64,000 bases of DNA from contig CAXXHG010000043.1 in NCBI GenBank assembly GCA_963666315.2, forward strand, positions 96,001 to 160,000. The letters run 5' to 3'. This stretch comes from Candidatus Binatia bacterium. Its GTDB lineage: Bacteria > Desulfobacterota > Binatia > Bin18. This document shows, piece by piece, positions 28,283 to 35,282 of the stretch. Numbering within the stretch: position 1 is the first letter of the stretch; each line of letters opens with the position of its first letter. The notes beneath the pieces are model-generated. The model was not told the DNA's origin, ran no database searches, and worked only from the letters and a program-made list of their open reading frames with translations. The position numbers and the translations under genes are program-made.

Positions 28283-29125
28283 ATGGCAGCAACACAGACG
28301 TCGGCCGCGGTTGAAATTCAGGTAAAAGAAACCAAGCAAGAGCAAACGGGGTATGGCGAAATGCCGTTCATGCGCTTCATGGTTATAGGCTCAAGCCTTG
28401 GACTGCTTTCTTTACTTCTCATTAGACTGTGGCAAGGCGAGTGGTGGTTCCCGGTTGGCCTTGACGCCACAACACCCGAATTTGCCACCTATTGGCTAGG
28501 CCTGCTGTATATTGAGTGGGTCGTCCTTATCGCTGTCGGCGTGATGGGCTACCTGGCATACCGTAAACCATGCGCGATCTGCGCAGCCCATAAAATAGAG
28601 CTGGGCCGGATTGACCCCGAGCACGAACTCAACCACATTGGCAAGCTGTGGGCCACTGTTGCGGTGGCAGCCATCTTCGGCTTTGGCGTCAGCTATTTTG
28701 CTGAGCAGGACGCCTCCTGGCATCAAATCGTGGTACGAGACACAGCCTTTACCCCCAGCCATATTCCGCTCTTCTTTTATGCCTTTCCGATGTTGCTTGT
28801 CATGACCGCGATCAGCTCCTGGTACGCCTATAACCGCCTGCACCACCTGTATGTGGGTGAGGATGGTAAGGGCATCCCGCTCTCCTACCTGCTGTTTCCA
28901 GCTGGTGGCTGGCTCTTGTTCGCCAATGTTGCTTTTAATGAACTCGGACATTCGAGCTGGATCACTGAGGAACTCTTCGTCCAGCCCTTCCACTTCCCGT
29001 TTGCTTGGGCGACCTATTTCTTTTTCGCCGGATTTGCCCTGCTCTTTAAGACCGTCCCGCATATCTTTGAAAACCTGAAAGCGATGACACAGCAAGAGAC
29101 TCCAACTTCTGTGCATGCCTCGTAA
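28283..29125 (+). CDS. pmoC: Copper membrane monooxygenase subunit C (divergent PmoC/AmoC/HmoC)
   Basis: GLD..TPEF..YW, SYFAEQDASWHQIVVRDTAFTPSHI, NELGHSSWITEELFVQPFH; AGGAGG RBS. Confidence 0.92.
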   Translation: MAATQTSAAVEIQVKETKQEQTGYGEMPFMRFMVIGSSLGLLSLLLIRLWQGEWWFPVGLDATTPEFATYWLGLLYIEWVVLIAVGVMGYLAYRKPCAICAAHKIELGRIDPEHELNHIGKLWATVAVAAIFGFGVSYFAEQDASWHQIVVRDTAFTPSHIPLFFYAFPMLLVMTAISSWYAYNRLHHLYVGEDGKGIPLSYLLFPAGGWLLFANVAFNELGHSSWITEELFVQPFHFPFAWATYFFFAGFALLFKTVPHIFENLKAMTQQETPTSVHAS

Positions 29126-29196
29126 AAAGCCTCGCAGCAAGTCTCAATTCGTGTTACCCGCGTTGTCGAAACTCGTCATATAAAGACAGTAGCAGT

Positions 29197-29940
29197 ATGA
29201 AGGCCGAGGAACTCACCGCACTCGGACAGCATCGCTTGGCTAAGGCTTTTGACGTGATACTGCTCCTCGCCCTTATTGGCTTTTTCACCGTCATCCCACA
29301 TGTCAGTCGGATGCTGTATATGGGCGACTGGGATTTTTGGGTCGACTGGAAAGACAAACTGTGGTGGCCGATCGTCGGACCTGCTTCTGCGCTTTTAGTC
29401 ACTACCGTAGGCCATTATCTGGCTTGGTATTATCTGCGTCTCCCTCTTGGCGCGACCTTTGCCGCGGTCTGTGTTTTGATCGGGGCATGGATCAGTCGGA
29501 TCTTCAGCTTCTATGGGCTGGAGTATTATCCGCTGAATTTTGTCTGGCCTGCGACGACTATCCCTATGGCGCTGGCGCTTGATCTTATCCTTTTTTGGTC
29601 ACGCAGTTATTTGGTCACGAGCTTCGTCGGCGGATTTTTGTGGGGCTTCATCTTTTATCCCATCAACTGGCTCATGCTCATGCCTTTTCTCCAGCCCATT
29701 ACACTCTTTGGTAAGACGTTTACGATTGCCGATTTAATGGGCTATTACTTCGTACGCCCGCAAACGCCGGAGTATTTACGGCGGATTGATGAAGGCACCT
29801 TGCAAGCCTTCCTTGGCCAGCGGATATGGATCAGCGTCTTAACGGCTGGTGTGGCTTGCACCATTGTGTACTGGGTCGGTATCGGGATAGGCAAAGCGCT
29901 CGGGGTCATGCCCCTGAATAAAGTGATCCGGCAAACGTAA
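29197..29940 (+). CDS. pmoA: Copper membrane monooxygenase subunit A (divergent)
   Basis: GDWDFWVDWKDKLWWP, RLPLGAT, YPLNFVWP, FYPINW, ADLMGY.FVR..TPEYLRRI. Confidence 0.93.
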   Translation: MKAEELTALGQHRLAKAFDVILLLALIGFFTVIPHVSRMLYMGDWDFWVDWKDKLWWPIVGPASALLVTTVGHYLAWYYLRLPLGATFAAVCVLIGAWISRIFSFYGLEYYPLNFVWPATTIPMALALDLILFWSRSYLVTSFVGGFLWGFIFYPINWLMLMPFLQPITLFGKTFTIADLMGYYFVRPQTPEYLRRIDEGTLQAFLGQRIWISVLTAGVACTIVYWVGIGIGKALGVMPLNKVIRQT

Positions 29941-29979
29941 CCTCCTCGCGTCAGACGAATAGCCTTACAGGGAATTTTC

Positions 29980-31324
29980 ATGTCTCGTTGCGGAAAACTG
30001 TGCGCCACGCTCACCCTTGCTCTCTGCCTGTGCACGACGGGGGTTTCACCCCCTGGGGTTTCACGCGTCCAAGCCCATGGCGAGCACAACTTGGAGCCTT
30101 TTATTCGTATGCGTGGGGTGACGTTTTTCAACGTGCAGTTCACCCACGACCAGCTCAAAGTCAATGAGACCATGACCGTGACTGGTAAGTTCCGGCTAAT
30201 GCACGCCTGGCCACGTATGCTCACAACGCCCGAGCTGTCTTGGATCGGTATTCTGGTACCCGGCCCGAAGCTTGCCGTGCGGGAACGCTGGATCAATGGC
30301 CGCTTTATCCAAAACTCATTTCATACCGAGCTGGGAGAAATATACGATTTCAAAATGGTTCTCCAGGCTCGGCAGCCCGGCCGCTATCACATCCATCCGC
30401 TCGTCAACCTGTCTGGTACCGGAGGACTGGTGGGCCCTGCCAAATGGATCACCGTTGTCCCTGGAGACGCCCCACCTTCCTATACCGTAGAGGTTGCGGC
30501 AACGGGCGAGATCATAGACCTAGAACACTTCGGATTCGCTCGACATAGACCTAGAACACTTCGGATTCGCTCGAATAGTTAGCTGGCATCTTGTTTTTGG
30601 TATTCTTGGAATTGCCTGGCTCGGGTATTGGGCGAGAAGACCCATAATCGTACGCTACGCTCTCTTATTAGAAGGCGTTGACGAAGAACAGATCACAGAC
30701 AAGGACCGTCGGGTTTCTTACATTTTCGGCGTAGTCTTGGTCGCTGTGGTTGTTGGCGGGTTGTGGGTAACAAATTCTGGCAGTCCGCCAACCATTCCGC
30801 ACCAAACGGGCGGTATATGGGATCTGTCCGGTCTGCCGCATCCCAATGCTGTGCAGACCAAGGTCAAGGAGTTCCGTTACAGCCCGACTCAGCGCGCCCT
30901 GAGCATACAAGTTGAAGTGACAAACAATTCAGACCAATCCGTATTATTACGAAAATTCAGTACGAGCTATCTGACTTTCATCAACCAGGACAGCCAAGCG
31001 CTGTACCCTGACGCCCAGAATGAGGTTCCTGTTATGAAAGTGGAACCTGAGGGACTCATCCAGCCTGGCGAAACCAAAGCCTTGACGCTGACTATGCAGG
31101 ATGCGGTGTGGGAAACGGATCGGTTCATCGAGTTCGATCAGCCCCAGATCAGCGCCGCCGGCGTACTTGTTTTTACCGACGCCCAGCCTCTTCCAGCAGA
31201 AGAACTTGAGCCCATGATGATGGGCAACAGCCGAGAAGGCTTAGGTGTTCCGTGGGAACATATCTCGAGCGTGAATGAGGTCTATTCCAATCTTCTGGTC
31301 GATTTTGGGCAAGTAGGGCAGTAG
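29980..31324 (+). CDS. pmoB: Copper membrane monooxygenase subunit B, frame broken by a 31-bp duplication (437 aa if one copy is removed)
   Basis: Signal peptide ending VQA then HGE at residue 33, PGP...R...NG, PGRYHIHP, IDLE..G...VSWH, two TM helices, second domain with VTNNS...IQPGETK...DAVWETDR. Confidence 0.9.
30513..30574. repeat. Perfect 31-bp tandem duplication
   Basis: CATAGACCTAGAACACTTCGGATTCGCTCGA at 30513-30543 and 30544-30574. Confidence 0.97.
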
Positions 31325-31500
31325 CGACTTTTGCCATCGAGCGCGACCAAAAGAGCACGAGCCGTTTGCTCCTGCGTGCGTGCTCTTGATCTTGAAGCGA
31401 GACCGCTGCCCGGGCAATTCATAATTGCCCCTACACACTGCTCTCACAGCTCCATGGCAACCCTGCCAAAGAATTGGCGATCTTCGAGCGAGCGGTATGC

Positions 31501-32022
31501 TTACACGGGCTCAGCGTCGATGAGGATGCCGGCCAAAAGTGCCGGCTCATCGCTTCGGTTGACCCACGCGTGATTTGTGCCACGCTGCACAACCACGTCA
31601 AAGGGTTCCAGGTCGACCTAACCCTCGTCAAGTAGGAGGGTCACCTTGCCCGACAGCAGAATGATGTAACCAACCGTGTGGGTAGTATGCATGCCTGGAT
31701 GACGGGTCATACCGACGAGCGCGCTCTCAGCGCCAATACTAGCAAACATTTCTCGCGTCCGAGTGGCAAGCGTCTGCGCATCCAGGTCAGCGGTTGCAGA
31801 ATCAGGTGCAAGTTCAAAATACCGAAACAACGATCCGAGCGGCGGGGGTTGGAGCTACACCGGCCGGTCGGCGGCATCGGCATTGCCTTGATTACTCGCC
31901 GGGATCTCTTCCGTGGCCCAAATCTCGGTCACCGGATCGAAAGCCTGGGGTGCATCATCGAACAACACAACCGATTTGCCCTGGGCGTTATGTCCCGTCA
32001 CCACTCGTCGAAGTTTTCGCAT
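31501..32022 (-). pseudogene. Cupin domain protein with two in-frame TAG stops
   Basis: RRVVTGHNAQGKS, PGMHTTHTV.Y, VVQRGTNHAWVN all in one frame; TAG at 31855 and 31618. Confidence 0.85.
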
Positions 32023-32284
32023 ATTTGCCTCCTTGTCCAAAGCGAACTGCCGCCTCAGCGTCCGGTACGTAATCCGCACGTCGCTCTTCAGTAAGGCACG
32101 GGTTTGCCTGATAACCTCAAAGAAAATCCATATCCGTCTGCCAGTCGCGATGGATTGTACAAGAGTGAAGCAACCGGGGATAGAATCGTCCCTAGCGCGT
32201 CTTTACTCCGGGGCCCGATCCGGCATAAGTTGACACAGACCGGTTCCCGCTCCCGCTATGCTCACCCCAAAGGAGATAACAATC

Positions 32285-32575
32285 ATGCCACTGTATTTAG
32301 ATGAAATCTATCTCAACGCCAGCAGCCCCGAAGCCGCGAAAAAAAGCGTCGGTCTCATCCAACAAGTCCTCAAGGACGGGTTTCCGCCCGGAGTGACCCT
32401 CAAGGCTGGGCCATGGGGATCGAATGAAGAGGCCAAAGTGGTGCTCATCCTCGATATCCAGGACCACTCGTTGACCTTTGACGGCTTTGCCAAAGCGGTC
32501 AGTGCCGGTCTTATTACGAAACGGCGTCTGACACCTTTGGTAGAATGGAGCGCTGTGGAGAAAGCCATGAGTTGA
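32285..32575 (+). CDS. Small hypothetical protein (DUF3303-like)
   Basis: 96 aa, AAGGAG RBS, PPGVTL.AGPW and LTPLVE motifs. Confidence 0.6.
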   Translation: MPLYLDEIYLNASSPEAAKKSVGLIQQVLKDGFPPGVTLKAGPWGSNEEAKVVLILDIQDHSLTFDGFAKAVSAGLITKRRLTPLVEWSAVEKAMS

Positions 32576-32931
32576 TATCCGCACGCTACCGACTGCGTCA
32601 CATCCCAACTGGCGGTGAGCCGGAACCGACTGAAGGGTAGGGGACCCGTCTCAAGCACGCGGAGCTCTCGTCTCGCACTATAACTGCTCCGATATTCCCA
32701 CAGACATTTCCGCAAGCACCCGAAGCGCAAATTCCCGCTTGAGCACTCGGTACGTTATCCGGCCCGTCGCTGCAGGGCGCGAGATTGTTCGTTAATGTCG
32801 GTGAAATTCACCCGCTCGTCTCCCCTCATAGACCAACTCCACCGATAAGAGCAGGCAAGCAGGCGGCGGACAATGTGTGTCGGAGCAGGGCTGTCCTTGC
32901 CCTACGCCTCCATGCGAAAGCAGGCCGGCTC

Positions 32932-34277
32932 CTACTCTGGAGCAGGCTGATCCTGCACAGGAAGCGGAGCAAGTTCCGCAGTATCGAGCACCACAGGCTT
33001 GCTGGCATCAATCCGGAGCCACACCAGCGCGCCCACAAGAGTAAGGAACACCATCACATAAATGGCGACCTCCCAGCCAAACCGATTCGCCAAGATCGGG
33101 GTGAGGGTCGGTGCGAGTACCCCACCCAAGATAGTCATGATGTTGGCGAACCCATAGGTCACCCCAGTGTACGGGCCACCAATATCTATGATCGTGGCAA
33201 ACGCGGACGCAGCGGACATATATAAAAAGCCATCCCCCAAAGACAGTAATACGATGGCCACATACGGGTCCGCCGCAGTTGCCCCAATGCCGGCACACAC
33301 CGCGCTCAGGACCAGGCCGACAATCGCCCCGGCGCGGCGGCCGTGCTTGCGCCCATATCGCCGGACCAGTGCGTCAGACCAGATCCCGCCTAAGGGACCG
33401 AGCAGCGCCACGGCTATGAAGGGGCCGGTGGCAAACATGCCCCCCCGAGTTCGCTGAATCCGCGCTCATTCACCAGGTATAGATAGAACCAGGCTTGATA
33501 CAGAAAGACTCCATAGCCCATGCAGAAGCCCGCGCTCCCGAGCAACCACACATTGGTATTGGTCAGCAAACGACGCCAGGGGATAATCGCGTCGGCGGCA
33601 CTCGTCAGGCGAGGATTATCGCCACGAATGTGCTGCAATTCCTGTGGGCTAATCTGAGGGTGTGTCTCAGGCTCATCAGTCACGTAGGTGTACCACCGAA
33701 TGGCGAGCCCGATCCCGATGAACGCAAACATGTAAAACGACACGCGCCAGCCGTACTGCACCATGAGGAAGGCTACGATAGGCGGCGTGATTGCATAGCC
33801 GATACCCATACCACTCAGGACGAGCCCGCCAGACGAGGCCCGCTCATCCGGGGCCATCCAACAGGCCAGCAGCCGGGTTGACCCGGGATAACATGCCCCT
33901 TCGGCCAAGCCAATGAAAAAGCGCACGACGAGAAAGGCCGCAAACGGTCCCAATAGCGAGAGGCCCGGCACCTGCGGGGCAACGGCGGTGAGCGCGGTAA
34001 ACACGGACCACCACACGAGTGCGGCACCCAGCAGCTTGCGCGGCCCCAGCACATCGGCCAACACGCCCCCGGGCAGATGAAAGGCCGCATAGCCCAAGAG
34101 GTAGACTGAGTAGAGGACGCCGATCTGCACCTCGGTCGGTCCATACTCTGGCATGATTTGCTTGGCGGCCACCGAGAAGTTCACCGCGTCCATACTGCGC
34201 ACCACGCTGATCAGCACCAGCAGCCAGACGAGCCTCCAGCGGATCGAAGACACGCCGGTCATGGGTGGTGCCCCCAA
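32932..34277 (-). pseudogene. MFS transporter (anion:cation symporter-like), frameshifted
   Basis: NFSVAA, GVLADVLGPRK, RFFIGLAEG..YP, YGWRVSFY; break in the C-run near 33440-33446. Confidence 0.82.
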
Positions 34278-34369
34278 CTGCCGTCCTTCTCCACGGCCAG
34301 CTCACGGGCGTCGGGGAGCGCTGCTCGGCGCGTATCGCAGCCCTGATCATTCCTGGCGCATGCACGCGG

Positions 34370-34444
34370 AAGAGTCCTATACCTGATACGACCGGATTCT
34401 CGGAGGAGCGGGCGCGCTGCTTTAACGACTTCGGAGAATCTCAC
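34370..34444 (-). pseudogene. Orphan N-terminal head of an adenylate cyclase/AAA/TPR family gene
   Basis: MRFSEVVKAARPLLRESGRIRYRTL resembles the head of the gene at 35210. Confidence 0.55.
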
Positions 34445-35210
34445 ACAGCCTCCGACAGTTCGTCCAGAACCGCCTTGGCGTCTTTCAAATCTGCCGTGTC
34501 AAAGCCTTCAGTGAACCAGTTGAAGACCGGAGCGAGAAGGTCACAGGCTTCAGCCGTTTTTTCCTGCCGCTGCCACAGGCAAGCGAGGCTCGTGGCGGCA
34601 CGGAGCTCTAGGGACTTGGCTTGTTGATTTTGAGCAATTTCGATGGCCTGTTGAAAACATTCTTCTGCTTCCTCTTCGATCCGTGACCTGTCGCTTTCTA
34701 CTTGCGACTTTTTAAGCGTCAGCTCCCCTTTGAGCCGATACAACTCCGCCTCATAGAAACGCGCCGGTTCGATGGTGGCGCGAGCGTCTTCGGGATCGAG
34801 TCCTTCGATCAGCGCCGTCGAGCCCTTGAGGTCAGCAAACAGGGCGGTTATCGTTTTGCGCTCGCGTCACTCGCCCCTCGGGATTCCATAGCTTGCTGTT
34901 CGGCCCGGATACGCGCGGCTAGGCGTTGGGGCGTGTAGCTGGCTAGGGTCTGGGGAATAGGGGTTGGGGGTCGGACTCGGGATGCAGCTTCTCCGTTTCC
35001 CCGATTCTCGGTTTCGTTTCCCTCTCCTATCCAGACAAGAATCTTATCGTCTTCGTCCGAGGCCACTCGCTCGGAATCAACCAACTCGACCTTGATGTCC
35101 TCAAGATATTCATAATCCAGATCAAACTGACGTTTCAAAGCTCTATGAGAAATCCGGCCTTTACTCCGCAACAGCGCACGCGCTTGGTCGAGGACATCGA
35201 TAAACGTCAT
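34441..35210 (-). pseudogene. Adenylate/guanylate cyclase-AAA ATPase-TPR gene with a large internal deletion
   Basis: N-terminus MTF.DVL.QAR.LL...GRIS.RALKRQFDLD; cyclase start KTITALFADLKGST..IEGLDPE joined directly to the C-terminus EAELYRLKGEL...KSLELRAATSLA.LW...WFTEGFDTADL. Confidence 0.85.
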
Positions 35211-35282
35211 GTTCTCCCCACTTGGAGAGGCGATTATAGGAGAGAAAAGCCGGGCAGGATAGCTTTATGCCTTCGGGCCGGT

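Follow-up and report, generated by a model that had tools for sequence, protein, structure and literature searches.

Positions 28283-31324 of the DNA described here hold a pmoCAB-type operon of a copper membrane monooxygenase (CuMMO). The window, a stretch of 64,000 nucleotides, lies on contig CAXXHG010000043.1 of a Candidatus Binatia bacterium (GCA_963666315.2); window coordinates are used throughout. Our overall reading, which we consider likely to be right, is that the operon belongs to a deep-branching CuMMO lineage of marine Binatia and that this copy has most likely been inactivated by a tandem duplication in pmoB. CuMMOs catalyse the initial step in the oxidation of methane, ammonia and short alkanes, and their substrate cannot yet be read from sequence. 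Marine and sponge Binatia have been regarded as methane sinks because of their pmoA-like genes. The modest points of interest are the pair of very different CuMMOs that marine Binatia with the window type of operon usually carry, the isolation of that type, and its repeated loss in some strains. The operon consists of the following features:

28283..29125, + strand: pmoC, 280 amino acids, subunit C, with the CuC ligands D143/H147/H160, the CuD ligands N219/H223/H237 and Ala155; Pfam AmoC.
29197..29940, + strand: pmoA, 247 amino acids, subunit A, whole; Pfam AMO.
29980..30582, + strand: 5' part of pmoB, with signal peptide, N-terminal cupredoxin domain (His33, His137, His139), 12 out-of-frame residues and a stop.
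30513..30574, + strand: perfect tandem duplication, a 31-base unit twice, which shifts the pmoB frame by +1 just ahead of the first transmembrane helix.
30545..31324, + strand: 3' part of pmoB in the +1 frame, with two transmembrane helices and the C-terminal domain; its first start, TTG at 30737, lies inside the second helix.

The three genes are co-directional and in CAB order in the list of open reading frames (ORFs). A preliminary description, made from the letters of the window alone, had named a CAB-order CuMMO operon at exactly these positions and called it highly divergent; both statements hold. PmoC matches Pfam AmoC with 150.4 bits (E 7.5e-44; cut-off 26.7) and PmoA matches Pfam AMO with 210.2 bits (E 5.8e-62; cut-off 27.5), and the two parts of PmoB match Monooxygenase_B (cut-off 22.7) with 171.6 bits over profile positions 1-153 of 380 and 84.8 bits over 211-364 of 380. 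Canonical particulate methane monooxygenases (pMMOs) and ammonia monooxygenases (AMOs) were represented by the NCBIfam equivalogs TIGR03078/79/80, NF041557, NF041640 and NF041641 with their curated cut-offs. Every subunit falls below both of its cut-offs: PmoC with 160 vs 319 and 142.6 vs 280.6 bits, PmoA with 227.3 vs 290 and 209.3 vs 318.15, and PmoB with 188.6 (+84.9) vs 336 and 140.5 (+74.4) vs 394.9. Among PDB chains, pMMO and AMO score alike against PmoA (155-166 and 162-169 bits, respectively). For PmoC the values are 96-99 bits with AMO and 104-124 with pMMO, and for PmoB 96-99 and 101-138.

The frames of pmoC and pmoA are uninterrupted and that of pmoB is shifted. The perfect 31-base unit was seen twice in tandem both by direct reading and with Tandem Repeats Finder (period 31, 2.2 copies). 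The duplication leads to a stop 12 codons on and moves the remainder of pmoB to the +1 frame. Because PmoB is cut between its periplasmic N-terminal cupredoxin domain and the first transmembrane helix, the copy most likely no longer works; it is probably dead, and most likely a fresh pseudogene.

The break was checked by aligning contigs of four public runs (X1-X4) to pmoB and by following 31-letter words. X1 and X2 come from one study with two sample codes and are possibly the source data of the assembly. Their contigs break at the repeat. A 60-letter unitig (30514-30573), in which each 31-mer crosses the junction of the copies, is present at depth 2 in X1 and 3 in X2, equal to the depth of the flanks, and the 31-mer unit itself is found at double depth, 4 and 6. 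X3, from another study, contains a 2304-letter contig in which exactly 31 bases are skipped and the 1286 aligned bases show 0 mismatches; a contig of X4 (seawater metagenome, 99%) has 15 mismatches and skips the same 31 bases. An unbroken pmoB frame is present in all 20 related loci and in 24 of the 25 other genomes of the same genus that carry it, the exception being G014 with one TGA, and the extra 31 bases occur in none of the eight relatives aligned at the duplication site. Since the junction words are present in X1 and X2 and a single copy is present in X3, X4 and the relatives, the duplication is real in the reads, strain-specific and very recent. Runs X5-X20, labelled as seawater, marine or vent samples, contain 8-67% of the words, the one metatranscriptome among them 8%; no reading of habitat or expression is drawn from these values.

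The X3 contig ends at window position 30008 in a 22-letter loose end. We take this to be the SMART cDNA primer, which is a hint and not proof that the intact allele is transcribed; if the identification is right, X3 would be cDNA and the intact allele would be transcribed there.

The break in pmoB fits a wider decay of genes in this genome. Three of five pyrroloquinoline quinone (PQQ)-dehydrogenase loci are split into two frames or carry stops (C3:644-2186, C40:52698-54279 and C46:24586-26262), and two, on contigs C24 and C30, are whole. An MFS transporter gene at 32932-34277 on the - strand, 1.6 kb downstream of pmoB, is represented by ORFs of 287 and 168 amino acids that overlap by 25 bases in different frames, likely another frameshift beside the operon. 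Perfect tandem duplications with units of 12-80 bases number 77 genome-wide, 14 of them with units of at least 20 bases, and several of the long units (22, 23, 25, 26, 29 and 31 bases) are not multiples of three. Related genomes show decay of the same operon type. The complete genome G027, of the same genus, lacks a window-type pmoA and keeps a 98-residue pmoB relic of 73% identity (C1:463458-463757), and the in-frame TGA of G014 lies in a pmoB at C5:4017-5246. We conclude that the window-type operon is being lost repeatedly.

The copper sites themselves are well preserved. In alignments to solved pMMO chains and of 82 PmoC and 78 PmoB loci, PmoC holds D143-x3-H147-x12-H160 and N219-x3-H223-x13-H237, and PmoB has His33 after the signal peptide and H137-x-H139, the ligand sets that the preliminary description had read from the sequence. 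The nine copper ligands are invariant in the 82 PmoC sequences, one of which has a gap at the three CuD columns, and in the 78 PmoB sequences; all nine are kept in 20 of 20 members of the clade. Two canonical pMMO features are replaced. PmoB reads T48 and R72 at the positions of His48 and His72 of M. capsulatus, as had been noticed earlier. This bis-His site is not universal in pMMOs. PmoC reads RDTAFTPSH where four aligned pMMO chains read RDTDFTPSH, and its Ala155 aligns with PmoC-Asp168 and with HmoC-A151. In the 295-amino-acid reading of HmoC from Mycolicibacterium chubuense NBB4, residue 151 is the alanine of RDTAFTPSH, and the D/H ligands fall at 139 and 143; the HmoC numbering used in the available text of a recent review matches this reading (PMC13058606). 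According to the same source, the change A151D in hydrocarbon monooxygenase (HMO) lowered butane oxidation more than ethane oxidation (PMC13058606).

The equivalence of Ala155 with HmoC-A151 proposed in the preliminary description is borne out by the four pMMO chains and the NBB4 mapping. Its use as a hydrocarbon-type signature is not. All 20 clade members have alanine at this site, as do the second CuMMO of the same genome, the three actinobacterial HMOs and 46 of the 56 other loci compared. Because it is common to most non-proteobacterial relatives, it carries little information as a hydrocarbon signature; it does not discriminate and is weak evidence.

An exhaustive search of 1.84 billion representatives at 50% identity found one full-length match above 50% (86%), the next full-length match being at 45%. 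The window clade is contained in one 50%-identity cluster, and its sister group consists of four metagenome-only clusters at 54-58% identity. Named anchors for the trees came from plasmid records and a few named proteins: NBB4 hmoCAB, Rhodococcus sp. ZPP, Mycobacterium dioxanotrophicus, Methylacidimicrobium, Haliea ETY-M, Methylomonas paludis, Caldinitratiruptor and an ABC-order operon of Methylomagnum, which was taken as pxm-like from its gene order. Two profile searches for further anchors yielded few named organisms, among which Methylococcus, Nitrosomonas, Nocardioides and SAR324 were missing, and a class-level genome search gave a match in 3 of 401 genomes, one above the cut-off. The trees accordingly hold no canonical pMMO, AMO or SAR324 rows, and canonical pMMO and AMO were compared through the PDB searches. 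One row of the trees, locus L070, comes from a genome flagged as unpublished (G056); it is also one of the 56 other loci compared at the A151 site, and none of the conclusions depends on it alone.

In a careful PmoA tree of 81 rows hand-picked from 301, the clade has support of 100/94, and clade plus sister group 100/100 on a stem of 0.85 changes per site. Together these join the actinobacterial HMOs and one Pseudonocardia metagenome-assembled genome (MAG) weakly, at 84/80. A quick tree of the same 81 rows separates an "HMO half" from a proteobacterial, verrucomicrobial and pxm half with 99 by the SH-like approximate likelihood ratio test (SH-aLRT). In a concatenated CAB quick tree of 37 rows, in which the window PmoB was joined by X at the break, the clade has support of 100 and a stem of 1.42 changes per site. 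From these trees we conclude that the operon represents a separate deep lineage whose placement is unstable. Tight nesting within a characterised pMMO, AMO or HMO clade, which would have spoken against the earlier description, was not seen among the rows used, from which canonical pMMO and AMO were absent.

PmoA is 79-94% identical in 20 species-representative loci (L003-L022), with which the window sequence is monophyletic; the next locus is at 48% or less. These 20 best loci are nearly all MAGs of Candidatus Binatia or Binatota, many of them closed chromosomes of 3.8-5.7 Mb, and the placement in Binatota suggested earlier is upheld. In a survey of 56 genomes of the order, including the source genome, the window type occurs in 30 of the 55 others: 25 of 27 in the same genus and 5 of 8 in a second genus. 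It was absent, in this order-wide search, from 20 genomes of nine other genera. Within the order surveyed, the window type is confined to two genera of marine Binatia. A second PmoA of 35-46% identity is present in 50 of the 56 genomes, where membership was assigned by identity alone and the 46% match in G051 is of another type; both PmoA types are present in 27 of the 55 other genomes. Six records (L003, L018, L022, L031, L053 and L082) are titled 'uncultured Enterobacteriaceae bacterium' or 'Klebsiella pneumoniae'; they contain Binatia-type operons and look mislabelled.

The source genome has such a second operon (L002, G000:C24:35054-38757). It is intact, with genes for C, A, a 111-amino-acid ORF and B (CAxB), and its PmoA clusters with Binataceae sequences in the trees. 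Its identity to the window operon is 33% for C, 37% for A and 25-36% for B; in most genomes with the window type, the PmoA of the second operon is 36-37% identical. About 3.6 kb downstream lies a gene for a PQQ methanol/ethanol-family dehydrogenase (L087, C24:42399-43928), which scores 609 bits vs a cut-off of 480.

Twenty-five different window ORFs between 20.1 and 44.1 kb were scanned against Pfam or NCBIfam, and none encodes methanol dehydrogenase, pmoD or hao, in agreement with the preliminary description. Those scanned include enoyl-CoA hydratases, three F420/luciferase-like oxidoreductases, MFS transporters, TetR and a quinone oxidoreductase. The heterotroph-like context claimed earlier is found in the window and does not extend to the genome, which encodes, outside the window, two whole PQQ methanol/ethanol-family dehydrogenases, one of them the enzyme near the second CuMMO. 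Fae and Mch were not found in the genome, which is 92% complete. A search of the same genome for the multi-haem HAO family (PF13447) gave no match; it had no working positive control, since the controls gave no match either.

In the relatives, a PIG3-type quinone oxidoreductase gene is found downstream in 15 of 20 loci and a gene for a Pyr_redox_2 protein in 9 of 20; upstream are genes for a GCS2+CBS protein and an AstE/AspA-like protein (10 of 20) or for an NFACT-R protein (6 of 20). Synteny was considered as a guide to function and set aside, as the flanks vary among relatives and the conserved neighbors form no pathway. The quinone oxidoreductase gene follows pmoB more closely in 15 of 20 relatives than in the window, where about 4 kb (31325-35280) lie between the two genes; the ORFs of this block have no counterpart in the flanks of any of the 20 relatives. 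Within the block lie the split MFS gene and, at 31618-32079, what may be a split pair of cupin-like ORFs. A scan for promoters and terminators gave nothing above chance (one promoter-like site vs 3.1 expected).

By homology, the intact enzyme would be a membrane-bound trimer of C-A-B protomers, in which copper in PmoC (CuC, D/H/H; CuD, N/H/H) and in PmoB (CuB, His brace) would activate O2. The activated oxygen would then hydroxylate a small hydrophobic substrate. That substrate could be a C2-C4 alkane or alkene, a suggestion to which we give a little less than an even chance and which is somewhat likelier than methane; it is the least supported step of our account. The lean comes from the alanine at the HmoC-A151 site and the arginine at the His72 site, which match NBB4 HMO, from the greater effect of A151D on butane than on ethane oxidation by HMO (PMC13058606), and from the weak grouping of the clade with actinobacterial HMO in the careful PmoA tree. 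Of the earlier proposal of a CuMMO lineage acting on C2+ alkanes or alkenes, the separate lineage stands, the alanine signature has lost most of its weight, and the substrate is no more than a lean.

Several observations count against this account. The duplication is seen at a depth of only 2-3, in two runs of one study that may be the assembly's own source. The junction record extends 30 letters to either side, one letter less than the bridging rule asks for. Moreover, because the 31-base unit equals the 31-letter word, no word is specific to a single-copy allele, and minority intact molecules in X1 and X2 are therefore possible. The CAB tree places the clade by the proteobacterial-like side with 97 SH-aLRT, and not with actinobacterial HMO; forcing the clade together with five actinobacterial rows costs 12.7 log-likelihood units, with p 0.033 in the approximately unbiased (AU) test, a generous value since the tested group was named after the tree had been seen. 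The alanine at the A151 site is shared with the presumed TUSC-like second copy as well as with the 46 of 56 other loci. There is no dedicated alcohol dehydrogenase among the scanned window ORFs, and the relatives have no conserved gene for an alcohol or aldehyde dehydrogenase next to the operon; the XoxF-like dehydrogenases in the genome would suit use of C1 compounds. The low depth, and the fact that the otherwise identical X3 contig has one copy, would also be expected if the duplication were an artefact of sequencing or assembly and pmoB were whole in the living cell. We hold this to be improbable: two runs, which carry different sample codes, each contain the junction 31-mers two or more times and at flank depth, the unit is at twice that depth, and the genome has 13 other perfect tandem duplications with units of at least 20 bases, plus many other broken genes.

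With regard to the substrate, the enzyme might be a true pMMO with which marine and sponge Binatia oxidise methane. All pMMO copper ligands are kept, the genome has its two whole PQQ methanol/ethanol-family dehydrogenases, and the Binatota pmoA transcribed in sponges is treated as a methane sink by Ramirez et al. (2023; PMC9999580). However, every NCBIfam pMMO and AMO equivalog cut-off is missed, PmoC Asp168 is replaced by alanine, Fae and Mch were not found in the 92% complete genome, and the CuMMO-adjacent dehydrogenase sits by the second operon and not by the window operon. The available text of a preprint also puts Binatia pmoA-like clades among the hydrocarbon monooxygenases and describes TUSC-encoding Binatia MAGs without methane-processing modules (10.64898/2026.02.02.703227). 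Taken together, this makes methane a somewhat unlikely substrate. An AMO is extremely unlikely. The best PDB match to PmoA is indeed an AMO chain, at 169.3 vs 155-166 bits for pMMO, a difference that is not meaningful; the scores of PmoC and PmoB are higher with pMMO than with AMO, no subunit reaches its AmoA/B/C_BACT cut-off, and the lack of an HAO-family match in the genome adds a weak argument, that search having had no positive control. Finally, the window type might be a third functional kind of CuMMO, kept beside the HMO- or TUSC-like enzyme, with a substrate that is neither methane nor a C2-C4 alkane, for example an alkene, acetone or another small volatile of seawater or an animal host. 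We think this unlikely, more so than methane. If it were true, the repeated decay of the window type (the frameshift here, the TGA in G014, the relic in G027 and the lack of the type in 3 of the 8 second-genus genomes) would mark a niche-dependent accessory function. In a lesser variant of this reading, the 31-base duplication could be a reversible off-switch, which is conceivable because such repeats are easily lost again and there is an identical allele with one copy.

A deep-branching CuMMO lineage with a dead copy in this genome, as we read it, has practical consequences for work on these bacteria. Transcripts or amplicons mapped to "Binatota pmoA" can mislead unless the two paralogues are kept apart, and pmoB should be checked for breaks before the gene is counted as functional.

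In comparison with known systems, the window operon has the three-subunit architecture of the pMMOs of M. capsulatus Bath and Methylotuvimicrobium 20Z (PDB 3rgb, 7s4h and 7s4l), with which the CuB, CuC and CuD ligands align residue for residue. It differs from them at PmoC Asp168 (Ala) and PmoB His48/His72 (Thr/Arg) and in its NCBIfam equivalog scores, which reach roughly half of the cut-offs. With HmoCAB of NBB4 (plasmid pMYCCH.01, L083) it shares CAB order, the alanine at HmoC-151, the copper ligands, an arginine at the PmoB His72 site with no bis-His site, and the weak PmoA grouping of 84/80. In contrast, subunits C, A and B share only 37%, 43% and 25-39% identity with those of NBB4, a joint clade is marginally rejected by the CAB data (p-AU 0.033, on the generous side as noted), and the flanking genes of NBB4, for an NDMA-dependent methanol dehydrogenase and an AMP-binding protein, are without counterpart among the scanned window ORFs. 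The second CuMMO operon of the genome belongs to the same family and has the same copper ligands and the alanine at the A151 site, but it has CAxB order, is intact, and has a PQQ dehydrogenase nearby.

The closest comparison is with the Binatota CuMMOs, whose earlier publication the preliminary description had correctly stated (Murphy et al., 2021; Ramirez et al., 2023). The accessible sections of Murphy et al. report CuMMOs in the orders Bin18 (2 of 2 genomes) and Binatales (9 of 48), in CAB or CAxB/CAxxB order and with two copies in two genomes; they place Binatota pmoA in the TUSC cluster and in an Actinobacteria/SAR324 cluster, and leave methane versus short alkanes undecided for the latter (Murphy et al., 2021; PMC8262859). 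Transcription of pmoA by sponge Binatota is described in the portion available of Ramirez et al. (2023; PMC9999580), and archaeal HMO analyses, in the text at hand, list Binatota among the holders of HMO (PMC12533140). The two genera of the lineage probably belong to Bin18, judging from this literature. The restriction of the window type to two genera and its isolation in a single 50% cluster come from the present analysis; earlier studies of Binatota or Binatia may already separate both paralogues. As far as the published accounts were available, the window copy differs from these CuMMOs in its frameshifted pmoB and agrees with them in phylum, marine or host-linked setting, CAB order and conserved CuB histidines (PMC8262859, PMC9999580), in the occurrence of CAB and CAxB copies in some genomes, and in leaving methane versus a short alkane undecided (PMC8262859). 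The operon is of an already published kind, that of the Binatota CuMMOs of undecided substrate.

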